From: an uncultured Planctomycetales bacterium
GTDB taxonomy: Bacteria; Omnitrophota; Gorgyraeia; Gygaellales; Profunditerraquicolaceae
Length of the DNA: 64,000 bases
Reading direction: 5' to 3'
NCBI GenBank assembly: GCA_964467905.1
Contig: CAYXSY010000002.1
Span: forward strand, 13,545 to 77,544
Both the position numbers and the translations under genes were made by a program. Shown one piece after another: positions 12,859-42,700 of the stretch (positions within the stretch are counted from its first letter, which is position 1; each line of letters begins with the position of its first letter). The notes under the pieces are model-generated. The model was not told the origin of the DNA. It made no database searches and saw only the letters and a program-made list of their open reading frames with translations.

Positions 12859-13198
12859 TTGCGGGGGCCCGATTTGAACGGACGGCCTTCAGGTTATGCT
12901 TACTACTGCAGCTTTCGCTGCCCCAGAGTTATTTTGAATAGGACTTAAAAAGTTAACCCTGGGTTTGTAGTCTGGACTATACCTTGATCCTTACAGGACC
13001 CCTGCCATCTAGTCTCTACACCTTCTCCAACAGAACATCGAAGATTGGCTCGGTATTACTTCCGGTTTTATCCGAGAGCTTCACCGAATTTGACAGGTTA
13101 TCCTCCAGCCGTTGCCGGCTAGGGAGCCCATTATCCCGCCCTTGCACGCAAGGACGGGACATTGAGCCTGACGAGCTACCAGACTGCTCCACCCCGCG
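12859..13198 (-). tRNA. initiator tRNA-Met (anticodon CAU) interrupted in the anticodon loop by a group I intron; no encoded CCA
   Basis: The 5' exon is cgcggggtggagcagtctggtagctcgtcaggct (13198-13165). The 3' exon is cataacctgaaggccgtccgttcaaatcgggcccccgcaa (12898-12859). Joined, they give a 74-nt cloverleaf almost identical to E. coli tRNA-fMet as I recall it. It has the C1xA72 mismatch and A11:U24 pair typical of bacterial initiators. Confidence 0.9.
12899..13164 (-). ncRNA. group I (IC3-like) intron within tRNA-fMet
   Basis: 266 nt. The splice sites were chosen so that the 5' exon ends in U and the intron ends in G. It contains GTCAAATTCGG (13094-13084) and GAAGGTGTAGAGACTAGA (13025-13008), which match the tRNA-intron core strings I recall from the Azoarcus/cyanobacterial introns. 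A 10-bp P2-like hairpin cccgtccttg/caagggcggg lies near the 5' end. Confidence 0.85.
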
Positions 13199-14892: not shown

Positions 14893-14999
14893 TTAAAATT
14901 TTATCACAACTCCGAACATAGTCAAGTAATAAAACCGTTTTGCCAAATATAATTGACTTTTTGTTAGGATGTGCTATCCTCTTTTCTATAGGAGGAACT

Positions 15000-17900
15000 A
15001 TGAATACAAGTAAATTCAGGATATTCTTTAAGCTTTATTGGCTAAGAATCCTCATCATAACGATACTCTCCATCCTCGGAATCTCTCTTATCTTTGCATT
15101 AATCGCCAGCATAAAATCATGGGTAAACATGGAGTCTTTCTACAAGGAACAGATGAAAGCCAGCATAGGCTTCCAGCTCTATCTTACCCTTATCACAGCT
15201 TTGTTATGGGGCGCTATATATACCCATATGTGGTACTGGATGATGTTCAAAGGCGGTGGCTTTAGAGAATTTTCCAAACTACAGACCAAAGCCGTCAAAG
15301 GCGAAGACATAGGTATCAAATGGCAAGATGTTATAGGTATGGAGGAAGCAAAACGCGAAGCATGGGAAGCAGTTGAACTCATAAGGGAAAGATCGCGCGT
15401 CAAAACCATGGGCGGACAGATTATCAAGGGTATTTTATTAATCGGCCCTCCTGGCGTAGGCAAGACTTACCTTGCCAAAGCAATCGCAACCGAATGCGAT
15501 ATGCCCTTTCTTTCGGTTGTGGGAAGTGAACTCGAAGGCATCATCGTAGGTTTAGGCGCACAGAAAATACGTAAATTATTCAAATCAGCGCGCGATATGG
15601 CTGCTTTAAAAGGCGGATGCGTGATTTTCATCGATGAGGTTGACTCCGTGGCCCGCCCGCGTTCGCGCACTTTCGGATTCGGAGGCGGAGAAAGCTACAA
15701 CATGGCAGTAAACCAGCTCCTGGCGGAAATGGATGGCTTAAGGCAGAAAGATTTAAACATTGTCATCATTGCCGCAACTAACGTGACCGAAGAAGACCTT
15801 GACTCTGCACTGATGCGCGCAGGAAGATTTGACAGAAAAATATACATAGGCCTGCCGAGCTTAAAAGACAGAGAAAGCTTATTTAAATATTACCTTAATA
15901 AAGTTGCTTACAGCCGCTCGGAAGTAAAAATAGACCGCCTGGCCCGTCTAAGCGTAGGTAACTCCCCTGCCGATATAGCGAATATGGTTAAAGAAGGCTC
16001 TCTTATCGCTGCCAGGAAAAAGGCGCCTTTAATAACTATGTCGGAGCTCGAAGAGGCGCGCGAAAAAATATCATTAGGTATAAAACTAAACATAAAAATG
16101 AGCGATAAGGATAAGAATATCGCTGCCTATCATGAAGCAGGGCACGTTATTGTTACCTACCTATTAGTACCGACTAAAGACGTATTTAAGGCAAGTATCG
16201 TACCGAGAAGGACATCCGGAGGGTCAACCTGGATGGTCAAGAAAGAAGAATCTTATATACCTGATAAAGAAGATTTATTAAGCGAAATAAAGATTTTGCT
16301 CAGCGGTTATGCTGCTGAGAAAATTAAGTTCGGCATCACATCAAGCGGGGTGCATGACGACCTCAGGCGCGCCAATGAATTAGCCGATAAAATGGTTTCC
16401 ATATGGGGTATGGGTACATCCGGTGCAACTGCTGTCTCTGACATCAACAAATGGTCTCCCACCCAAAGCCAGATAGCCGAAAAAGATAAAGATGAAATAA
16501 TAACCAAGTGCTTCAATGAGGTGCATGAATTATTAAGAAAAGAACTGCCAATATTAGAAAAAATGGCTCAAGACCTTCTCCAAAAAGAAGACCTCGATTA
16601 TGACGCTATAGAAAATATATTCTCCGAATTCGGCAAAACTAGGCTGATGGAGAAAAAAGAATCCAAAGAAGAAAAAGCTATCGGCTGGGATGATGTTATA
16701 GGCATGGAAGAAGCTAAAGAAGAAGCAACCGAAATCGTCAAGCTAATTAAAGACCGCGCGCAACTTAATCGGATAGGTGGAAGAATTATCCGAGGGCTGC
16801 TTATGTTCGGACCTCCCGGCTGCGGAAAAACCTACCTTGCATCAGCTATGGCTAATGAAGCATCCTTACCCTTTCTAGTTAAAACCGGATCTGAATTTGT
16901 GGAGATGTACGTCGGAGTAGGCGCCAGCCGTATACGCCACCTCTTTCAGGAAGCGCGGGAGTTGGCACTTTCAAAAGGCGGATGCATAATATTTATTGAC
17001 GAAATAGATGCTCTTGGCGGTAAACGCGGCGAAACCAATTCAGGAGGTGCGCAAGAATACAACCAGACATTAAATCAGCTTCTGGCGGAAATGGACGGAT
17101 TAAAAGAAAAAGACGACCAGTATAACATAGTCGTTATCGGTGCCACAAATATGAAAGAGGAATTTATGGACCCGGCACTTTTAAGAGCAGGGAGATTCGA
17201 CAGGAAAATCTATGTTGACCTCCCCGGGCTAGAAGAAAGAACTAAACTCTTTGATTACTACTTAAAAAAAGTAAAATACAACCCTGATGAAATTAACAGC
17301 CACAAGTTAGCCGGAGTTACCTCCGGTTGGAGCCCGGCTGATATCGCTAATCTTACCCGCGAAGGAGCGCTGATTACTATACGCAATAAAAAAGAAGTTA
17401 TGGGAATAAAAGAAATTGAAGAAGCCAGAGAACGAATTGAGCTCGGCCTAAAAAGAAGGATAAAACTAAGCCCCGAAGAAAATAAAGCTACGGCTTACCA
17501 CGAAGCAGGGCATGCTATCGCCGGACATTTCTTTGCCCCCTGGATAGAGCAATATAAACTATCGATTATCCCGCGCAAACGCACGCTTGGCGTCTCCTGG
17601 GCGAATTTAAAAGGCGAAACCGAATCGCTGAATAAAAATCAAATACTCGGCCTGATAAAAAGGTCTCTCGGCGGATATGTCGCCGAGAAATTAAAATGCC
17701 CATCCACGACAAACGGAGTGACAATTGATTTCGAACATGCGCTCAAGAATGCTTATAGCATGGTCTGGGCTTACGGGATGGGTGCTTCAGGATATATAGG
17801 TAATTTCTATTCGCTTATGGAAAAAACGCAGCAGTCCATAATTTCCGAGGAGATGAAAGCAAAATTAGATAAAGATGTCCAGGAAATAATGCACCAATGC

Positions 17901-18029
17901 TTGAAGGAAACCGAAGAGCTCTTTAAAAAACATGACGCATTGTTAGAAACCCTCGCCAAGAAGCTACTTGAGAAAGAAGAACTAAACTATGACGAGATCG
18001 CAACAATATTTAAAGAATGTTCAAAGTAA
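15000..18029 (+). CDS. tandem-duplicated FtsH-like protease: TM anchor followed by two complete AAA+ / M41 zinc-protease units in one polypeptide
   Basis: Unit 1 has [24 protein letters not shown] and HEAGH. Unit 2 has [24 protein letters not shown] and HEAGH. ATG at 15000 is preceded by AGGAGG, so I prefer it to the track's TTG at 14940. Confidence 0.85.
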
Positions 18030-29452: not shown

Positions 29453-30703
29453 TTAGAGCTTGCTAAGCAGCATCCGCTCAGTCCGATCTACGGAATTAAG
29501 ATTCTGCATACTGAGCCCGGTTTCCCTTACCGGCCTTATGGCAGGCAAGTCTTTAGCCAGCACTATTGAGCCCTCCTCCAGGGAATTATCCGTGCTTAAT
29601 TGAAGCTGATTCTTAGCGTACATTAAAGGCTGCCGCTCATCCTGCGGAATGAATAAGTCGCAGGTAAACATAACCCCAGAGGCGTCCTGCGCCTGCGGTT
29701 CTGCATAGGTCCTGACTGTCCGGATATTCCTAAAGTCTACGCCACCGCTAAAGTAGTGCCTGGTTACGGCATAAAATGGTCCTGATAAATAGTCGTTTTC
29801 AACAAACGAATACTCTCCTTCTTTTAAGGACTTAAGGTAATCTTGGTAAACCTGCTTAGGAGCATAGGTATCGCTTGCTTCTATGCCTACTAGGGCATTA
29901 TAGCTGGCCTGCCTTAATAAGGGCTCGGTTGAAGGGCTGAACTTCTCTTTATACCACGCTGCCAGGATTAAGGCATTATACGCCTCCCTTAAATCCGCAT
30001 AGCCGTAGGATTCGTTTACTTTTCTGTTTAACTCAGGCAGAATCATCTCCTGCATAAGCTTAGAGGTAAAATTATCCATTTCTTCTTCTCTTTTGTCTTT
30101 TACCTTAGCTTTTCTGGAAAGATACGCCGGCTCAAGGCAGACTTTGAGTTTGGCTTTGATAATGGAGAATTGATTTCTCTCTTCGTAGACCGTTACTTCA
30201 TCCGGAACAATCCAAAGCCGGGTGGACACCGAGATTTTATCCATCACGCCCAATTCCTGGGCTTTCTTATAGATACGCTGCCAGAATTCCCGGCCGGTTT
30301 TAGAGTTCTGCGGATTGGTCAGTTTCGCAGCATCTTCTTTTAACCTCAAATCGGCCTTAAGCATAACCCTGCCAAAGTCGGTCTCGCCTAAAATAGAGTC
30401 AACAATCCTGTTTGGCTCATCAGGATTGAGGTTAACCCAGAATACCTCTTGAGATAAGCCTAGGCTCACAAAAAAATACTCTAAATTATTCTGCACGGCT
30501 TTTCTAGCATCCAGGATCGGTTCAAAGTTACCGGGTTTTCTGCCCCGGATAACAAACCTTAAGTGATTAACCTTTCCTTGGCTGTCTACAACCAGCGAGC
30601 TAAAGACTGTCGAGCTTACCTCTGGCTCTTTTACATCTTCGCTAAAGGCAAAGGAAGCAGTAAGAAAAAACCCTAAAATAATCAGGAAAAGTATTTTCTT
30701 CAT
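29453..30703 (-). CDS. secreted protein of unknown function, translationally coupled to the giant ORF
   Basis: Signal peptide MKKILFLIILGFFLTASFAFS. Its start overlaps the giant ORF stop by 1 nt. Confidence 0.65.
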   Translation of the reverse strand: MKKILFLIILGFFLTASFAFSEDVKEPEVSSTVFSSLVVDSQGKVNHLRFVIRGRKPGNFEPILDARKAVQNNLEYFFVSLGLSQEVFWVNLNPDEPNRIVDSILGETDFGRVMLKADLRLKEDAAKLTNPQNSKTGREFWQRIYKKAQELGVMDKISVSTRLWIVPDEVTVYEERNQFSIIKAKLKVCLEPAYLSRKAKVKDKREEEMDNFTSKLMQEMILPELNRKVNESYGYADLREAYNALILAAWYKEKFSPSTEPLLRQASYNALVGIEASDTYAPKQVYQDYLKSLKEGEYSFVENDYLSGPFYAVTRHYFSGGVDFRNIRTVRTYAEPQAQDASGVMFTCDLFIPQDERQPLMYAKNQLQLSTDNSLEEGSIVLAKDLPAIRPVRETGLSMQNLNSVDRTERMLLSKL

Positions 30704-33700
30704 TACGCCATACCTTCCAGTTCTTTATTGGCTTTATCCAGCTCTTCTAAGTACTGGGTATCTACCTTAGTTTTTTCAATGGGCTTAAAGATTATTTCCT
30801 TGATTTTTCCTTCATCATCCAGCTCGATATTGCCTTTCTCATCGGTTTTGGCTGCGATATATTCTTTTACCTCAGCCGGTAAGGAAGCATAGAATTTCGG
30901 CTCTTTGGCCAAGACAGCTACAATTAAGCCTAAGCTGGAAAGGGTTTGGGTTTCCTCGCCGCGCCGCACCAGCACATCCACCTTTTTGCCCCAGTACCTC
31001 ACGTTATCCTCAAAGATAATTCTTACGGAGCCTGCGATTAGATAGGGTTCTAATGTCTTGATTAAATAATCTTCGGGTATATCTGGGATTGCTACCATCT
31101 TCTTAAGCAGATCTTCAGTAAGACCTAAAACCTTGATGATTTTCTGCTTATTTAACCGGGGATTAATATTAATTAACCTCACACGCAGGTTCTTAGGGAT
31201 CTGCTTTTTCTCCTGAGCCTGGTATAAAGAGGCAAGCGCCTCTGTAAAGCCTAATCCTTTTAGCTGAGGCGCGCCCTTTGAAGTATCAATTAAGGTATCC
31301 ACATCCACTTCCAAAGTTAGACCGCTGTAGGCTTGGCTTAAGCTGTTTATCGCATAAATAGCATTCCGGCTTAAGCCCATATTCCCGCTTTGATTAACAG
31401 TAAAGAACGTTTTAGCAAAAGGATCCAGCTGTGCCTGAGGAATACTTTCCGGCGTGGGAGAAACAGAAGGAATAAAATTAGGAGTAGTGGTTGAAGCCAT
31501 TTGCCCCTGCTGTAGAGAACCAAGGGCTTCTTCGATATTATCTAAATCAGCTAAAACAATATTTTCAAAATATTCCGGCCTTAAACCTTGCTGGATTAAG
31601 CCCGGATGCAGCTCGTTTCTTGCCCTGGCATGATAGAGAAGCGAACCTGCGCCGCCGTAATCCAAGGCAATGACTTTTCTGCCTGCCTCCAAGGCAGCAA
31701 TAGCCTCATGTAGTGTGCCTCCCCTACCGTTTAAGATGATAACCACATCGGCAACTTTTCCCATGCCGATCCGGCGCTCAAACATATCCCGGCCAAAGTG
31801 AACGGTTTCTACCTTTCGCGGACCAAAAGCACTATATTCGTAATCCGCATCCATATCCTCAGGCAGAAGCGCAAAGAATCTGTCATCTTTACCTTGAGAT
31901 TCCTCAAGCGCTCCCCTGTAGACATCTACCCCGACGCCGGCAACGCCGCCCGTAAACACAAAACCGCCTTCACCGACAAATCTTCTGAGTCTTCTGCCTA
32001 ATTCCATTCCTATTTTTTGGGAATATCCTCTTGCCGGAATAGTTGCGCCGATTACACCTATCCTTATGCCTGGATACTGTTCTCTTATGCCCTGCGCTGC
32101 AGAATCAAAATCATAAGGCTTTAATACGCGCCTTACAGGCCGTACAGTAAGTGCCGGCGTTTTTTCTCGAGGCTTTGCTGATTGCGCAGAAACATTTGGC
32201 TGGGGTTCTTCTTTAAAATCTTCTTCGTTTTCCGGCCGGTCAGACGCAAATATCCTGTTCCTAAAAATCAAAACCGTGGCAATTATCCCTGCCAAACAAC
32301 CCACTATAAAACTGGTAAAAGGATCCGTATTTTCCAATACGCCGCTTCCTCCCGCTGCCAGAAACGGCAGGAAGTTGAAAGAATTCAGTTTTACCAGTTC
32401 CGGCTTGGCTTGAGGTTTTGGAGTTTCCGCCGGGCTGCTGGACAGAGAATTTATAAATTCAGCCAAAAGCTGATTGCTACCCTGCCAGCCGCCCTGCGGA
32501 TAAAAGCTGATTCCTCCTCTTAGATAATGCAGGAACGGCCTTCCGCCTACAGAAAACACCCTGGCGCTCTTAAGCATCATATCGCGGTCATCGCCGTCTT
32601 CCTCAAAGCTGTTGCCTAAGATTAAAACTTCTCCCGGCTTAGGTTCAAAACCAAACCTGTCTTTGCATACGGTTGTTAAATGGTATTTAACCGCGATAGA
32701 CTTGTCTACTCCCTTTATGGTCATGCGTATTGAGGTACGGCCTATCTCTTTTAAGACAATCGGAAGCTGCTCGCGCCCCAAGGCAGCCTGCAGACGCTTA
32801 CGGATCTCCCGGCGCAGGAATCCCCTTTCCTTTAACCGGATAATTATCTGGCTTCCGGCATCAATAAGCCTGGCAGGGCCGGCGACAACCTGACCTTTCT
32901 TATTCTTAGCTTCCCTATCCAGGCCGTATTCCTTGAATATGGAATCTATGGCTTTACGCCAAGACTGCATCTGGCGCTCAGCAAGCTCGCTGCCTGCGGT
33001 ATTATAAAGCGGCTGGGGCAAAGTATTGCCGTGCTTATCAAAACCGTAGGCCTGGCTGCCGGTAGCTGCGTAAATAGTCAGATTGGAAAGCAATGCCTTG
33101 TTCTGCGCCGGAACCTGGCTTAAAAGGTATCTCTCTACCTCTTTGTAGCTTTGCGTAGTCACAATAGCTACCTGTACGCCTAAGCCTAAAAGATAAAGCA
33201 GTTTTTCCATTACCGGCTTGGGTACTTCTTCCAGGGTATTCGCCAAGGTGCCGTCTAAATCTGAGACAACTGCTTTGTACGGAAGATTTACCAAGTCATT
33301 AGGCTTAGCGGGAATTTTAAGCCTTTGCTGATAAATTCCTTTAATGCGCCCGTATTCCCTGCGGACATTCTCGTTAAGCGCATCGGATAAGCTTACGCCT
33401 GTCGCATCCACATTAAAGATTAATCTTTGGATATGCGAGGTATCGTCAAAATAAGCCGGCAGATGATGCATCTTTTTGCCTTTAGTAATCCAGCTGCGCA
33501 TGAATACCGGAACGTCTTCATCCAGCATGGCGGAATTGACAAAAATCATTGCCGGCTGCACCACGTCATCTGCGGAAATAGCTCTTACCCTGCGCACTTC
33601 CTGGCGGTCCTCCCTGATTACCAACTCCAAGCCGCCGGGATTCCAAAAACCTACGTCATATAGATACCGCCTGGTTTTAACTGTTGGATCAAAAAGCCGC

Positions 33701-36700
33701 AGCAGGCGGCGGCGAAGCGTCTTGTAATCGCCTTTTTTCATTAAATCTCGGATAAAATGCCCGCTGGTTTTGACATTGCGCTTAAACATCTGCTCCTGGC
33801 CTCTTGAGACAATATCATTTACGGCAATGATTAAATTACGGTATCCTACATAGGCGTCAGGATAACGGCCGGACTTTCTGTCCTTGGGCCTGGCTAAGAG
33901 ATGCTGCGTGCCGTCCACCACGATAATCACCGGCTGCTCGTTTAAGATGCGGTCATAAAGATTGGCGCTGAAAAGGTCCGGCTTTACCAGAGTAGGATGC
34001 TCGTGGGATTCGCTGGAGCCGATTCTGGCGTAGTGCACCTCAATGCCGTCTTTGGCTAAATCCCTTAATAATGGGCTGACTGCAAACCTGCCGTAGCTTA
34101 AGTTCGGCACCACCCAGACGGCTCTTCCCATCTTATCCGCCTGCCTCTTGACTTGTAAGATAAACTCTCTTAAACGATAGGCTTCGTAGGCTGCGAATTT
34201 AACCTCGGCTTTTTCCCTGCCGTCAACACTGGCATGCTTAGCGCCGTTGTTAAAATTCTTCAATATCTCCAGATATTCGGCATAGCTGTATCTATGGGTC
34301 TGTTTTAAGGTCCTGTCTACCAGTTCCCGGAAAGTCGTATACTCTAAATTAACATGCAGCTCATTCTTAGGATTAAAGGCGACATCGCCTGTCTTAAATT
34401 TCCTTCTGATTTCCTGCCAAGTCAGTACGGCAGAATCAATTTTCGCCTTTGTACCCTGTTTAATTAATTCGGCCAGTAAATATCTTGTCGGCTCAAAACC
34501 TGCCAAACAGAGTTCCTGCAGGGCATATATCCCAAGTTTAAAATCGCTTAAATCCTTAGTTAAATTTACAACCTCGGGAAGCATTTTGGCTAAGGCAAAG
34601 GTGGGATTCCTACCGGATTTAAGCAGATTAATTCCTAAAAGCATTGCCTCATTTAATTCATCAATACTTCGTGTATTTCTTTCCACTTGGGGCATAATAT
34701 TTTTTAAAAGCTCATGATAATCGTAGTGCTTATCCTGCAAAGTCAAAGCAAATCTCTCGGCAAGATTTAAGCTGTTTGCAAATTGTTTTTCATCCCCGGC
34801 CTTTGCAGAAATCGCAGGCAGGCAGTATTTAAACACATGGCGCGGATTAATCTTGGCTTTTCTGAGGCGCGCTGCTGCATTATTTATCTCCTGAATGCGT
34901 TTATCCTGAATGCCCTTGGATAGAACCGGCAGCATATTTATAAAGAGCTGGTATGGCTCGATGCTTTGGATTTTCTTCCAGCTGACATGGCGGGATATCT
35001 CCCTGAATAGAAATATGCGCTCTTTTCTTTCCAAGAAACTCACCGCTCTTATTATTTCCCTGTAAAGGCGGCCGGTCTTATAAAGCTTAATTGCGGAAAC
35101 CGTACTTACGAAGATAAAGGCTAAACCCAAAGTAGCTATGCCTGCATAAAGAAGCGGCATCTTGGAAGCATCATATAGGCCTTCCAAGGACGCGCCGAAA
35201 CTCTGCCAGAGATCAGGCAGGCTTAAGGAGCCGATGAACGCAGACAATGGCGAACTTACTGTAGTACTGCCAGCCCTGTGTATAATCTCTCCCAAGAGCT
35301 GGTCTGTGCCGCGCCAGCCATGATGCGGATAATCTTCTACGCCTGCGGGAAGGCCTTTTTCTTTTCCTACGGAAACAACCCGCGCGCCTGCTGTTACCAT
35401 CGGCTGATCGCTTCCAGCCTGGGCGAACCTGTCTCCTACAATAAGCAACTTTGATAAATCTACCGGGCGGTTAAGCCGCGAAGGAAAAACCTGACCTAAG
35501 AAATTATCCTTGGCGCTGCCTTTATCCGCGCCCTTTAACACAACATGTATGGTAGATGTGCCTGAATATTCAGTCTGAAAAGGTAGGTTATTTGCGGCGA
35601 TCAATTGGACTAAAGTCGTATTTACCAGATCGCGTTTGTCTTTATGTTTATCCAAATGGATGCTTAGCTGCGCGCCGCGGTCAATTACTTTGACTGAGCC
35701 GTTAAGGGTGCCCAGCGCCTGGTTAATGAGATTTCGGATTAAAGCGCACTGCTCGCCAGTAACATCTGTTTGGGACCTGTCGCTGACAAGGATAGGATTG
35801 GCTTTGCCGTCAAAATTATAAAGCTGTACACCCCGGTTGGCATAAAGGAATAAGTTACCTAAGTGCTGCTTTTTATCGACATCTACCCTGTCTAGTATAT
35901 GCTCTCTTACTTCATCAAGACTCTGTGAGGTAACTATCCCGATAATTACACCTGATGAAAGAAGATAAATAAGCTTATCCAGCAAAGCCTTGTCTATGTC
36001 TTTTAGGGTATCAGTAAGCGTGCCGTCTAAATCAAAGAGCATGGCTTCGTAGGTGTTGCGCACAGCCTCCGGTGTCGGTTCTTTATATTCAACCTGGGGA
36101 AGCTTTCCTTTGTAAAAACCTTTGAGCTGCTGGGAGGCCCTGGTAGTCTCAAATTCCAAGGCATGCGTTAGATAGAGACCTCTTCCGTTGACAGCCAAGG
36201 CGTTCTGCTGGATCTGCCCCCGGTCGTCAAAGAAAGCCGGCTCATGCGTTCCTTCAAGGCCGGACCATTTCTTGATATCCTTAGGGATATCCTCATCCAA
36301 TAGCGGCGAATTAATAAAGATAAGCGCGGGAGAATCCAAATGCTCAGGGTCAAACGGGGTAACATTCTGCACCTCTTGGCGCGCTTCCCGGATTACCAGC
36401 TGCAGGCCGCCGGGATTCCAAAACTCTAAGCGATACAAAGGTACATCCTGCCCAGAGTCAGAAGCCAGTGTTTTGAGCTTTGAAACAAGCGTATTATAAT
36501 CCGAGGAATTCTGTCTTAACTGGTTTAAGAAATCAGTGCTTATTCTTACCCGGTCATGGAACGCATCGGCATTTCCTCCGGATAAAACATCGTCTACCGC
36601 CACGATTAGATTGCGGTATCCTACATAGGCGTCAGGATAGCGTGAAGACTTTCTTTCGTTGGGCCGGGCCAAAAGATGTTTGGTGCCGTCAACAGCAATG

Positions 36701-39700
36701 ATTACTGGACGTTCCCGCAAAATCCTTTGGTACACATCATCAGTGAAAAGTCCCTGTTTGACTAACTGCGGATTGTTATGGCATTCGGTTGAGCCGACCT
36801 TGGCGTAATGTATCTCAATGCCAAGCCTGGCTAACTCATCTAAAATTGGGCTGACGGCAAACTTCCCATAACTTAAATTAGGCACGACCCAAACCGGCCT
36901 GCCGAGTTTGTCTGCTTTTTGTTTTACCGCAATAATGAACTCAAGCAAACGGTAGGCTTCATAAACTGCCAAGCGTATTTCGCCGGCTTCCTGATTGCCC
37001 AAACTGGAAGCGGATCCGGTCGAAGAATGGAACCCTTTGATAAATTCTTTATAGTCTTTATAAGAAGTTGATAAAGACACTTGGGGCGCGAGAGCGCGGT
37101 AGGTATTGTATTCTAAGTCTACATGGAGAGGGTTATTGGGGTCGAAACGGACTGCGCCGGACTTGAAATCCGAAAGCAGTTTTTTCCACTGCGCGATCTG
37201 CTCTGAGGCCTGACTTTGCGAGGTGGTTTTTTGCAGTGTTTCGATTAAAAGCCGGGTGGGATGAAGCCCGCCTAGAACCAGCTGGCGGATAATTCCCAGC
37301 CGCTCAACTTTTACATTAGCGTCTTTTGCTCCCTTAAAAGCATCTGGAACCACTGCGGTTAACAGCTCGCTAAGGGCCTGCTTGTTCTGTGAAACCGAGC
37401 CCTTAATAAACCCGCAGACCGCTTCAAAAACAGCCAAGCTGTCTATCAGCTTGCCCAGATTATTTGCTTCGAGGTTAACAGTCCTTATATCAACATTGTA
37501 CAGCTTAAGACCGGCTGCCAAACTTTCCAGCAGCGCAAGCCCTTTATCAAACTCAGCTTCATCTTTGGCTATTCTGGACACTAAAGGCACGCCGTGCTCA
37601 AGGATATACTGCGAATTAAACCCTGACTTGTTTAATTTATCCAGGAAAAGGGCGAGTTTTTCAATCTGCTTAATCTTGCTGGTTTTGGATATGCTGGGGA
37701 GATTTCTGGCGATAAGGCCAGCCGGATCATACATGCCGTAGCTTTCTCTGTAGGCAAGAGAAACTGCTATTCTTTTTAAAGTCAGACGCTCCCTAAAAGT
37801 AGTTGACCCGGCATAAGCTAGAAGCCTTTTGTATACCTTATTCACCTGGTGGTTTAAATTGACAAGCGTAATGGCGAGGATAACGCTACCTATGCCCAGC
37901 AGCACAGAAAGCCAGATATACGTATTGGCCAAGTATGACAGAAGATAAGCCGGGACTTTTTCTTTCCAGGGCTTGTCCTGGTTGAAGTCCCTTAAGGCCT
38001 GGGCAGCGCTATGGTGTTTCTCATAAGAAAAGAGGCTGCTCCTTGCCTCCTCTTCGGAGAGGAACATTGTACCTTTGGTTTCGGGATATAAACTCTCCAG
38101 GATCTGCCGAGCCGCATCGCGGGCGGCAATACTCTCAGATTGAAAAACAGGCTCGATTTTATTTTTGGGGACTTTTCTTTCGACAAGTTCATTAACGGCG
38201 ATGAGGCGTATTTCCTCATCGGGATGCGGGAGGCACTCAATAAAAAAGTCAATGGGATTGACACCCATAATAAGGTCTGAAGATACATAATTGGGACATT
38301 TTCTAAGCGCCTGCATTGCGGTTTTAGCCAATGCAACATTCTGGGAGCCGTCTGGCTCTTGGTAACGCACGACCCAGACTAGTTTTTCTGTTACGGCTCC
38401 CGTCAATGCGTGGTCTTTTTTGGAAAGCGCGTCAATAACCAAGGCCAGCTGGGCGGGTTTATCCCGGTAATTCTCCGGTGTAAACGGTTCCAATAGAATC
38501 CATCTGGAAGAACTATAAGAACCCTGGCAAAGCTCGTCTAATTTATTTATCGCTGCGGAATTTATATCAGGATAATAGTTCCCCCCTGATGAAGGCTCTA
38601 TAACTATACGTGCCAAAGCCTTAAGAAAATTTTCCCCTATACTTAAATTAGGTTTCTCTAGCACATCGCTGCTTAACGCATTGATAACCGTAAGAAGAGC
38701 CGCCGGATTATTCTGGTAATTCTCTGATGTAAATAATTCAGCTAATGTGAGCCTGCCGCCATAATAGCTTGAGAGGATTGAAACCGCTTTTTTGATAACA
38801 TCCGGATGTACTGAGCGGTCGGCATTGCTGTATAAAAGAACCTGTTTGGTTTTCTCAGTAAGATTATCGTCCCTGTTGGAAACTATCTGGTCTAAAATCT
38901 GAATGACTTTCTGCGGGTTTTCCTGGTACATTCCCAGAGTAATCGGTTCTGCTGCCGCAGGCGCAGGGGCAGGAGTAGTAATCACTTTTGTTTTCGGCGG
39001 AGGTGGCGGCACAGGAGGATGCGGAATCGGCTTTGAAACCTCTAAAGGTGCCAGTTCAACCATCTCCACCTTGCCTGATCCCGGCTTAAGAGGAATTTTC
39101 TCAAGCAACGCCTTTGCTTTCCTCACTGCGATTTGCCGGAAATCGTGTCCGCTGCCTAAAGCTACAACCTGTTCTAAAGCCGTTTTAACCTCAGGGGTAA
39201 CGCGCTCTCCCTGTTCCGTTGCTATGGCAATAATGGCTTCAGCTGCGCCATCGCGGCCGCGCCAGTCAGACCGAGATAAAGCCCGCTTGAACTTATTGAG
39301 TGCCTCATTGGTCTTAATACGATACAATGCACGTGCTGCCGGCGGGATAGTCCCGTCAAGATAATATCCGCCTTCTAAAACCGCATCGGTCACGATCCAA
39401 TAAAGTTTCGATATCAACCCCTGGTCGCTGACATTTGAATCTTTTATGGCTTCAAATACTGCCGGCAGGATGCAGCGGGCCAGGTAATTTTCCGGAGTCA
39501 AAGAATCAATTATCCGGTTTGTTCCGCCGTCAGAAAGCAGTATCGCCGCGACAGTCCTTACCACATCCGCATCATATGTCTCTCTGCCGGCATAGGCCTT
39601 GAAAGCCAGCCATTGCAGCGAATCCAATATAGCAGTAGAGTGCGATTTTGTCTTTGATACGGCATCCAGAACCTTCAAAAGGCGCACAGCCTTATTCAAC

Positions 39701-42700
39701 AACTCGGGGTTTCGTAATATCTTGGCTAGAGCTTCCTGTCCGCTGCTGCCTAAATCCATAAGCGCAAGAGAAGCCTGCAGGGTTGTATCGGGATAGAACT
39801 TATTGTCTGATGTATCCGCTTCCACTATAACCCATTGCAAAACTTTGATTATGCGCGAATCGGATACCTTCTTGGAACGGATAAGCTCTATAGCTTTATT
39901 AATCTTCGCAATATCATTCTCATAATTATACTGAGTAAAAACCGCATCCAGCGATTCAGTTAACGAATCTTCGCTTTTTGTATCCGCGACTATTACAGCC
40001 CGTTCTATCTGCGCCCGGGCTTCGGGCGATACAGTTACATAATCTGCGTAGCTGACAAATGAAGGAAAGAATGAAAATGTGGCAAACATAACCGGCAGGA
40101 TACTCCGTAAAACTTTTCCAAAGCCTGAATCCGAAGACCTATCCTTTCCTATATCATTGATTCTTTTGCCCTTCTCTATCTCCAACAAGATTTTATAGGT
40201 GGCTGGCCAATTCCTTTCCCCCACGAGGTCTTCCGAAAACACGATACCAAGTTTCTGCAGATTTTTTAACACATCCCTTTCGGGTTTTCTCCCTACAGAT
40301 ACTATATGCCCTCCCGGCAAAACGCTAATTACATCGGTATCCAGCCCTCCGGCGGAAAAAGAATCCCCGGCAAAAAATACCTGTTCATAAGGAATTTTTG
40401 CTCCGGCATCATGTTCTATTATCCGCAAAGAATGTTCTGCAGCAGTTGCCTTATTCACTCCGCCAATAAGAACATGTACCGTATGCCTGCCGCCTGACCG
40501 AGGCTGTAGATGCCATCCTTTTTCGCTGAATAAATCTGTTAGGATAGCGCTAACCTTACTTCTATCTTCCTGTTTACGTACGGAAATTGTAATTGCCCCA
40601 TGGCGTTTTAGCGGATTCTGCCTAACATTAGTCAAGTTTATATTTCTATATCCGTGCTCTGCCAATCTAGCTTTTACAGCGTCTTCTACAAAAGCCTGAT
40701 TCCATTCTTTATCGTGGTCATCATCTCCGGGGATTTCCTTTTCAAAGACAGAGTTTTTAAGCGGATCATATGCTTTTTCTTTAAATATGTTTCCGCCTTT
40801 ATCAAACCGATAACACTCAGCACCCCCGGCAGTATAAATAATAAGCCTCTCTAACAGTTCTTTCTTTGCCCCATAGTACGAATAAAAAGGTTCAACGATA
40901 TGTTTATAGATTTCGTCTTTCCCCTGCATACTTATCAAAACGATATACGCACCTTTCTCTAAGAAAACTATCAGCTCTCCCAACATGCTTCTATCTATGT
41001 CTGTAACCGTATTAGTGAGAGTGTCGTCTATGTCAAACATCATAACGGAATATGGCTTAGCCAGCTCAAGGGGCGTTGGTTTTACTCCTGCAGGCCTTAC
41101 TTCTGCGGAAAAAACAGAAACCCTCTGTTCTAGTTCCTCTTTTGTTCTCTGGAGTCTGCTTGTTTCTTCTTCTAATGCCTCCCTTTTTCTGGTTAATGCA
41201 GGCACTTCTGTATCAAGCGAGACTTCTCTTGCTTTTAATTCGTCAAGGTGAACGGTGAGATTGCTTACTTCCTGCCTTACTTCTTCTAACTGTGTATTAA
41301 GAGACGCGATTCGCTCTTCTATTTCCTGTTTTTGTTTAAGCGCTTGCTCTAAGGCCTGTGTTTCCTGTTGTTTCCTGCGGGATAAATCAGATAGTTCTTG
41401 TTCCAATTGCGTTTTTTGAGCAGCAAGGGATGCTGCTTTTGTCCTTAACTCTTCCAACTGCCTTTGTCTTTGCGCAGTTTCCGCGTCAAGAGATGCGGTT
41501 TTTGTCTGGGAATCCTGCTGGAAAGAAGCTGCGTTTTGCTCAATTCTTCGCACTTCAGCAGCAAGGTCGCGATGCTGCGCCTGCAAAGCAGAAACTTCTG
41601 CGGACAAGTTCCTTCTATCATCCTCAAAGGCATGTATTGCTGCCTCTGATTCCTGTTTTTGTTTCTCAAGAGCGGATAGATATGTTCTTAATCTTTCTGT
41701 TTCCTGCGCAGACTGACCTCTTTCTTTATATAGACCGGATATATCCTGGGACAGCTTAGAAATTTCTGTTTCAAGATTCTTCTTTCGTTCTTTAAGCGAA
41801 ACTATCTGCGTATCTTCTCGCGCGCCTTTTGTTTCTAGGCCTTTGATTTTTCTTTCCAGATCCGCTAATTCTTTTTGTCTATCGTCAACAGCCTGGTCTA
41901 AAGCTTGCTGCTGCCGGGCTAATTCTTCCTTCCGGGAGTTTAAGTCAGCGATCGCCTGAACGAGCTCTTCCTGCTGTCGGCTTAATCCGGATAATTCTTT
42001 TTCCAAGGCATCCTTCTTGCCCTCCAAGGAAACCAGCGCATCCTCAGATTCTTTCTTTTTAACCTGCAGCGACTCCAAATTCACAGCAAGGGCGGATAGA
42101 TTCTGCTGCGCTTTAAGGACAGCCTGCTGGGTTTCGGCAAGTTGCGAACGGGCGCTTGCGGTTTCTTCTTGAATTTGGGCTTCCTGGCTGGCTTTGGTTT
42201 GCTCTAAAACACGCAGCTCATCTTCTAATGCTTTAGCTTGACTCTGAAGCTGAGCAATTCTTTCTTCGTAATGCCGGTGTTCTTTTTCTAAGTTTTCTAG
42301 CTCTTTTCTAAGGCGGGACAGTCTTCCTTCTTCATCAGAGATTTCTTTAGCGATAGTGCTTTTTCTTGAGGCCACTTCGCGCTCCAGCTGCTCTATTGCC
42401 TGCCTTAAACTATCATCGCCGGATGGCGTGGTTTCCAACGTATCGGATCTTGCTTGAGTTTTCGCCAGAACTTCTTCCTGAACCTTTCTTTTCTGCTCTG
42501 CTTCTTCTAAGGCGCGCTGAGATCTTTCAAGGTCAGCTCTTACAGCAGCTAGTTGCTCTTGCGAAGCATCTATTTCTTCATCCAGCCGATCCTTATCCGC
42601 CTGTCTCCTGCGAATATCATCCCTTAGCTCTCTAATCCTGGACCATTTACGATAGACATACAGGCGCATGAAACCTAGTCCTGCGCCAAACGCAGCTAAA

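Follow-up and report, generated by a model that had tools for sequence, protein, structure and literature searches.

A tRNA-fMet gene of Candidatus Omnitrophota, very probably split at U33/C34 by an endonuclease-less group I intron of the fMet.2Ug class

Results and discussion

In the stretch of 64 kb of DNA analysed here (hereafter the window), a tRNA-fMet gene of Candidatus Omnitrophota lies between eno-ftsB and purB, and between its U33 and C34 there very probably sits a group I intron of the fMet.2Ug class and the IC3 subgroup that lacks an endonuclease gene. The gene occupies positions 12859-13198 on the minus strand, and its spliced exons form a 74-nt initiator tRNA. An interrupted initiator tRNA-Met gene with a bacterial tRNA-type group I intron had been proposed in the initial annotation, and the proposal held on every test run; the two segments 266 nt apart that join into a 74-nt tRNA had been placed there with exact coordinates, to which the minus strand can be added. 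The parts of the gene and the signal behind it are as follows.

13165-13198 (-): tRNA-fMet exon 1, 34 nt, positions 1-33, with C1, A11 and U33 at its 3' end, ending in ...GUCAGGCU
12899-13164 (-): group I intron, 266 nt, IC3 type by homology, without an endonuclease gene
12859-12898 (-): tRNA-fMet exon 2, 40 nt, C34 to A73, CAUAACCUGAAGG...CCCCGCAA
12780-12806 (-): intrinsic-terminator-like hairpin with a U-run, 53 nt past the tRNA 3' end, a consensus match only

Gene anatomy and splice junction

The exon boundaries were set by ARAGORN with introns allowed, together with direct reading. An intron-aware tRNA search had been suggested in the initial annotation, and ARAGORN run in this way recovers tRNA-Met(cat) with a 266-nt intron, while under default settings it reports only tRNA-Thr and tRNA-Phe in the 64-kb window and misses the interrupted tRNA-fMet. 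The borders read ...GGCU/CAAU...UAAG/CAUAAC (slashes mark the splice sites), and the intron termini are CAAUGUCCCG...GUAGUAAG, with CAAUG at the 5' end and UAAG at the 3' end by direct reading. Because the intron and exon 2 both begin with CA, three possible junctions yield one and the same spliced product; only U33/C34 gives a U at -1 together with an intron-final G, so that the earlier choice of this junction as the sole one obeying the rules is correct. Exon 2 ends at the discriminator A73 and the CCA is not encoded. Since the promoter scan found no sigma-70-like promoter upstream of the gene on its strand, it is possible that tRNA-fMet is co-transcribed with eno-ftsB.

The sequence of exon 1 is identical in two other contigs, L002 and L123, and these also bear on whether an error in the metagenome assembly placed the intron inside the tRNA gene. 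The source is evidently a metagenome, and a related contig, L001, differs from the window upstream of the guide sequence. However, L002 (SRR15237811), which is an independent assembly, has the same exon-intron-exon sequence over the whole gene, L123 (ENA activated sludge) has the same sequence as far as its contig end, and the architecture is common to more than 130 loci, so that an assembly artefact has a practically negligible chance of being the explanation.

Initiator identity of the tRNA

The spliced 74-mer bears the C1xA72 mismatch at the end of the acceptor stem, the A11:U24 pair and the CAU anticodon, all three as they had been described in the initial annotation. Moreover, the near identity to E. 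coli tRNA-fMet noted there amounts to 93.2% over the full length, measured against the E. coli genes annotated as tRNA-Met that occur four per genome, and these four-copy genes we take to be the initiator genes. Bacterial initiator tRNAs typically have three consecutive G:C pairs at 29:41, 30:40 and 31:39, a near-universal feature; the anticodon stem here consists of A29:U41, G30:C40 and G31:C39, and has two such consecutive pairs, not three. This departure is what would speak for an elongator tRNA-Met, or a lysidine-modified tRNA-Ile2 with a CAU anticodon, in place of an initiator. Against such an identity stand the C1xA72 mismatch and the A11:U24 pair, the resemblance to the four-copy E. coli genes, and fMet-type exons in 119 of 119 homologous hosts among the matches listed. 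A29:U41, for its part, is shared by every one of the 75 relatives from Omnitrophota whose tRNA-fMet was seen beside ftsB, 62 without and 13 with an intron, and among the matches listed from the genome scan it also occurs in several Patescibacteria, in one Planctomycetota and in one gammaproteobacterial genome. Because the intronless copies carry it too, A29:U41 is a lineage trait of these initiator tRNAs and not a mark of decay, and an elongator or Ile2 identity is highly improbable. A link between intron presence and one anticodon-stem variant was considered as well and rejected, since interrupted and intronless states occur on several variants.

Identity and fold of the intron

All three strings that had been assigned to the catalytic core of such introns, namely GUCAAAUUCGG, CCGAGCCAA and GAAGGUGUAGAGACUAGA, are found in the intron. 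The Rfam search proposed in the initial annotation also gives a match: RF00028 (Intron_gpI) aligns over its full length (model 1-253) to 13163-12959(-) with 50.3 bits and an E-value of 8.4e-10, by a small margin over the gathering score of 50. Because RF00028 passed only just, our own collection of homologues and our own model were built. The genome scan covered one genome per species with the pattern AGAGACT-N(88-118)-GCATAACCYRRAGG; an earlier pattern, exon 1 plus GTCAAATTCGG, had matched the window and was dropped because in published fMet introns the P1 loop is far longer and the J3/4 sequence varies. The scan gave at least 120 loci (L003-L122), in 119 of which both exons were located by Hamming-distance anchors, and among the matches listed all 119 homologues have the same insertion site, a U at -1 and a G at the intron end.

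In all, 81 distinct ORF-less copies were aligned (alignment A1), and a P1-P9 structure was drawn up on the window sequence. Over its 62 pairs, 94.7% of the cells in the 81 homologues are paired in the standard way, and shifting the 3' strands by 1-3 columns lowers this share to 34-43%; both sides have changed in 42 of the 62 pairs, and none of 500 shuffles reaches the observed values. Such two-sided changes affect 5/6 pairs in P3, 5/6 in P8 and 4/4 in P6a. P7 makes up the pseudoknot together with P3, and its closing pair varies among UA, GC, AU and CG. Covariation in 81 homologues thereby argues strongly for the P1-P9 fold, including the P3/P7 pseudoknot. In addition, a covariance model of the P3-P8 core (model R1) was made from 34 copies, comprising cyanobacterial, Nitrospirota, Bacteroidota and other cores with all Omnitrophota sequences excluded, and its search of the 64-kb window returned a single match, at 12965-13101(-), with an E-value of 6e-20. 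The minimum free energy (MFE) fold of the intron alone scores z = -6.58, and the P1 extension, P2, P3, P4, P5, P6, P8, P9, P9a and P9b all appear in it. The predicted elements are listed below.

13125-13168 (-): P1, exon bases G30-U33 plus intron C1-A2 (13168-13163) with the guide UGGGCU (13130-13125)
13160-13149 / 13144-13133 (-): P1 extension hairpin, 12 bp, seen in the MFE fold
13103-13124 (-): P2 with a GCAA tetraloop, compensatory changes in 9/9 pairs across the family
12965-13101 (-): catalytic core, R1 match of 102 bits, covariation in P3, P4, P5, P6a, P7 and P8
13097-13092 / 13006-13001 (-): P3, with AAA as J3/4
13088-13083 / 13054-13049 (-): P4, followed by P5 and P6/P6a
13014-13010 / 12979-12975 (-): P7, the G-binding helix
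13000-12995 / 12991-12986 (-): P8, followed by J8/7
12899-12971 (-): P9 domain, covariation helices 10-12 and MFE fold
12971-12967 / 12906-12902 (-): P9
12963-12954 / 12931-12922 (-): P9a, 10-bp stem with a 22-nt A/U-rich loop
12921-12908 (-): P9b, GCAGC-GAAA-GCUGC, GAAA tetraloop
12899 (-): terminal G, a G in 119/119 homologues among the matches listed

Within P1, the U33-G wobble at the 5' splice site is present in 81 of 81 sequences, and the pairs U33-G, C32-G, G31-C and C(+1)-G are likewise invariant (81/81). The triplet AUG at 13131-13129, directly 5' of the three G's of the guide, is a candidate P10 strand that can pair with C34-A35-U36 of exon 2, and the intron bases +1 and +2 are CA, the same as at the start of exon 2. 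The tetraloops GCAA of P2 and GAAA of P9b are as in IC3 introns, and the IC3 label itself would be carried over from the homologous fMet introns. As a separate observation, the 22-nt P9a loop ACUUUUUAAGUCCUAUUCAAAA (P9a, window 12922-12963, minus strand) is without counterpart in the other 80 aligned copies, and the relative L124 has a different, longer stem at this position.

Host locus and distribution among relatives

The order eno-ftsB-tRNA-fMet-purB-purL-purQ is common to the window and to L106 from Candidatus Omnitrophota, with 67-81% protein identity. In four further Omnitrophota loci (L047, L048, L056 and L115) an enolase match lies beside an interrupted tRNA-fMet, accompanied by an FtsB match in three of the four. 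Because of the synteny and protein identity with L106, the host is assigned to Omnitrophota and not to the cyanobacteria, in agreement with the earlier remark that its gene content did not look cyanobacterial.

A metagenome scan with FtsB collected 80 related loci (66-100% identity). Just downstream of ftsB, 62 of them have an intronless tRNA-fMet, 13 have one with an intron at 33/34, and in 5 the tRNA was not seen. Among the 13 interrupted relatives, five have an ORF of ~150-190 codons, taken to be an I-Ssp6803I-like endonuclease gene, seven have none and one runs off the contig end. In 12 of the intronless relatives the empty site is GTCAGGCT/CATAACCTGAAGG, exactly the exon ends of the window joined together, which differs from the canonical GTCGGGCT/CATAACCCGAAGG. 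Among the copies listed, a crude core tree built by neighbour joining places the window intron within a clade of only Omnitrophota introns, and the best core identity of this intron to any other copy listed is ~75%.

Two other features were also observed in the window. A 1029-aa protein with a TTG start, encoded at 14940-18029 (+), contains two AAA and two peptidase M41 regions and is a tandem double FtsH, both halves of which align to other Omnitrophota FtsH. At 30703-45462 (-) there is a single open reading frame of 4919 codons.

Homing endonuclease and mobility

Among the matches listed, 34 of the 119 homologues carry an ORF in the P1 loop, in most cases of 131-188 codons. The ORF of L106, which is the copy that was scanned against Pfam, matches PF11645 (PD-(D/E)XK) with an E-value of 4.8e-44 and PDB entry 2OST with 4.5e-49, and the other ORFs begin with very similar sequences; 2OST is presumably I-Ssp6803I, the homing endonuclease of the tRNA-fMet intron of Synechocystis. 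The hosts of the ORF-bearing copies listed are Acidobacteriota, Nitrospirota, Bacteroidota, Chloroflexota, Omnitrophota, Patescibacteria, Planctomycetota, Methylomirabilota and Proteobacteria. In at least seven copies the ORF reaches a UAG inside the conserved GUGUAGAGACU of P7.

No endonuclease ORF (PF11645) is present in the window intron, whose longest ORF has 48 codons and no Pfam match. This frame is placed as follows.

13016-13162 (-): 48-codon open frame, comprising a start codon, the hairpin and a C-terminal tail

As an endonuclease gene the frame was rejected for lack of a family match, and it is probably not a gene. We infer that it is a relic of a homing-endonuclease frame, for which the comparison with L001 is informative. 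From the guide sequence (13133) through the tRNA 3' end, the DNA of L001 is 100% identical to the window, and its purB product is identical too. In place of the 12-bp hairpin of the window, L001:1-300, upstream of the equivalent of window position 13133, encodes the C-terminal 100 aa of an endonuclease that shares 71% identity with the L106 protein; the corresponding frame of L001 runs on from this PD-(D/E)XK endonuclease into a tail identical to that of the window frame, NGLPSRQRLEDNL... It may be that L001 is a chimeric contig. If it is not, a single population contains alleles with and without the endonuclease gene.

As to the origin, homing driven by an I-Ssp6803I-like PD-(D/E)XK enzyme would have brought the intron to this lineage, and in the window copy the endonuclease gene would then have been replaced by the 12-bp hairpin, so that the direction of change appears to be endonuclease loss. 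That sister copies encode an I-Ssp6803I-like endonuclease explains why the intron is found in some relatives at the locus and not in others. Altogether, the window carries a mobile intron in a form that lacks the endonuclease gene, with a ribozyme under structural selection.

Intactness and selection

Of the alignment columns, 58 do not vary among the other 80 sequences, and the window matches every one of them; among the 106 columns with at least 90% conservation it departs from the family at 7. These seven departures are the exon base A29, two compensatory pairs that take up four columns (G-C to U-A in P4 and C-G to U-A in P5), and one each in L5 and in the internal loop of P6. A closer comparison is offered by L124, whose FtsB is 83% identical and whose intron is the same and likewise lacks the endonuclease gene. 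Where the two copies differ in P2, P3, P5 and P6a, the substitutions that were checked by reading all retain pairing, the stems of the P1 extension and of P9a are still hairpins after many changes, and the single-stranded core, the joining regions and P7 are unchanged. Because these differences keep the pairing and leave the joining regions and P7 as they are, the substitution pattern, as read from the two sequences, is that of a ribozyme under selection and not of one in decay. P2 has a C-A mismatch, which is present in L124 also. The L5 and the P5 extension deviate from the family consensus, and these deviations or the P9a loop could affect tertiary docking.

It should be considered here that the intron might be inactive and the tRNA-fMet a pseudogene, the work being done by an uninterrupted initiator gene elsewhere. 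The visible part of the genome is 64 kb, the RF00028 score is borderline, the endonuclease gene is absent, and L5 and P9a are unusual, all of which would suit a dead gene. It would be hard to reconcile, however, with the 58 of 58 family-invariant positions kept and the compensatory nature of the deviations, with differences from L124 that preserve structure, with exons that retain C1xA72, A11:U24, CAU and 93% identity to E. coli, and with a locus that is the syntenic tRNA-fMet site in 75 relatives. Moreover, no second tRNA-fMet was found in the 64-kb window or in the 0.94 Mb around the other 119 intron-bearing genes listed. A dead gene is accordingly very unlikely, and the reading of a functional, selected ribozyme is preferred.

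Proposed splicing and its consequence for initiation

For such a functional ribozyme, self-splicing would be expected by analogy with other group I introns, and the steps proposed are those of standard group I chemistry. In the folded precursor, G30-U33 and the first intron bases would lie on the guide 5'-UGGGCU, with the U33-G wobble at the 5' splice site, and a free (exogenous) guanosine nucleotide bound in P7 would attack after U33. The AUG of the guide would then pair with C34-A35-U36 of exon 2 as P10, displacing intron positions +1 and +2, and the terminal G (12899) would next occupy the G site. Attack by the 3'-OH of U33 would ligate the exons and restore the CAU anticodon loop (CU-CAU-AA), and the CCA, because it is not encoded, would be added after splicing. 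Selection would hold the ribozyme intact because the host needs the tRNA.

It is plausible that this is the sole initiator tRNA gene, in which case all initiation would depend on splicing, because the relatives keep tRNA-fMet at the same locus and the scanned DNA (the window and the 0.94 Mb) has no second copy. A further step would be that, under the same assumption of a sole initiator gene, guanosine- and Mg2+-dependent splicing sets the supply of mature tRNA and couples initiation to nucleotide or energy status. This we consider a very unlikely, rather speculative extension. If true, the coupling would account for the compensatory change that preserves the structure here, as against clean loss in 62 sister lineages, and the ribozyme might then amount to more than a passenger that these very small bacteria tolerate.

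Comparison with known systems

Four classical classes of bacterial tRNA introns, Leu.3Ug, Arg.5Ug, fMet.2Ug and Ile2.5Ug, all of them IC3, were described by Williams 2020, where fMet.2Ug denotes the U33/C34 site (10.1101/2020.01.27.920355). On its insertion at U33/C34 and its sequence and structural homology to the members, the window intron is classed as fMet.2Ug. In the part of Nakagawa 2026 drawn on here, 33/34 is a common site in tRNA-fMet, IC3 tRNA-fMet introns are recorded in Bacteroidota and Cyanobacteriota (Table S5 included), and PF11645 endonucleases are given for two cyanobacterial copies only in a survey of complete genomes (PMC13011429). Our literature search found no paper on a tRNA-fMet group I intron in Omnitrophota. 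The genome scan yields at least 119 genes with an fMet 33/34 intron in at least 15 phyla, at least 10 Omnitrophota genomes among them, and it adds Nitrospirota, Omnitrophota, Patescibacteria, Chloroflexota, Acidobacteriota, Planctomycetota, Methylomirabilota, Proteobacteria, Desulfobacterota, Actinomycetota, Elusimicrobiota, Armatimonadota and others. With the fMet 33/34 intron in at least 15 phyla, the statement of the initial annotation that bacterial tRNA group I introns are known mainly from cyanobacteria, which made the host seem unusual, is outdated. For annotation it matters that such a genome would appear to be without an initiator tRNA, because default tRNA finders miss the interrupted gene. 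Stages of the homing cycle are also captured at one syntenic locus, where 62 empty sites, endonuclease-bearing copies and endonuclease-less copies are found, and an endonuclease-bearing and an endonuclease-less allele stand beside identical purB.

Among the closest known systems is the cyanobacterial tRNA-fMet intron (Synechocystis PCC 6803, Scytonema, Dermocarpa; fMet.2Ug, IC3), with which the window shares the host gene and the U33/C34 site, the U at -1, the G at the intron end and the covarying P1-P9 structure. In fact, the window intron aligns along the whole core with the Scytonema and Nostoc copies (L013 and L031), and the absence of an ORF is a feature that it has in common with most cyanobacterial copies. 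In those copies of the scan that encode an endonuclease, the gene lies in the P1 loop, as it does in the Synechocystis-type sequences in Table S5 of PMC13011429. On the other hand, the host of the window is Omnitrophota, and the core identity to any listed copy is at most ~75%; P4 closes with U-A and not G-C, and the U-A pair in P5 is unique to the window; L2 is GCAA, P5 is extended, P9a has its 22-nt A/U-rich loop and the exon has A29:U41.

With regard to the I-Ssp6803I system (PD-(D/E)XK, 2OST), related P1-loop ORFs are found in Omnitrophota copies (L106, L110, L115, L138, L146, L161, L180 and L190), and L001, from the same population as the window, also encodes this family in the P1 loop, whereas the window copy lacks the endonuclease gene and has the 48-codon relic frame only. 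The IC3 introns of Azoarcus tRNA-Ile and Anabaena tRNA-Leu share with the window intron a short P1, a P2 with a GNRA loop and a GAAA loop in P9, and all are without P5abc. The core strings GUCAAAUUCGG, CCGAGCCAA and GGUGUAGAGACUAGA of the window are, as we assume, those of the Azoarcus intron as well. However, the Azoarcus intron (tRNA-Ile, 36/37) and the Anabaena intron (tRNA-Leu, 34/35) interrupt other tRNAs at other sites, and the exon bases of P1 and P10 differ. The window intron leaves the knowledge of group I introns and of translation initiation unchanged; set beside these systems, it is a well-documented Omnitrophota example within a classical family, that is, a new example and not a new phenomenon.
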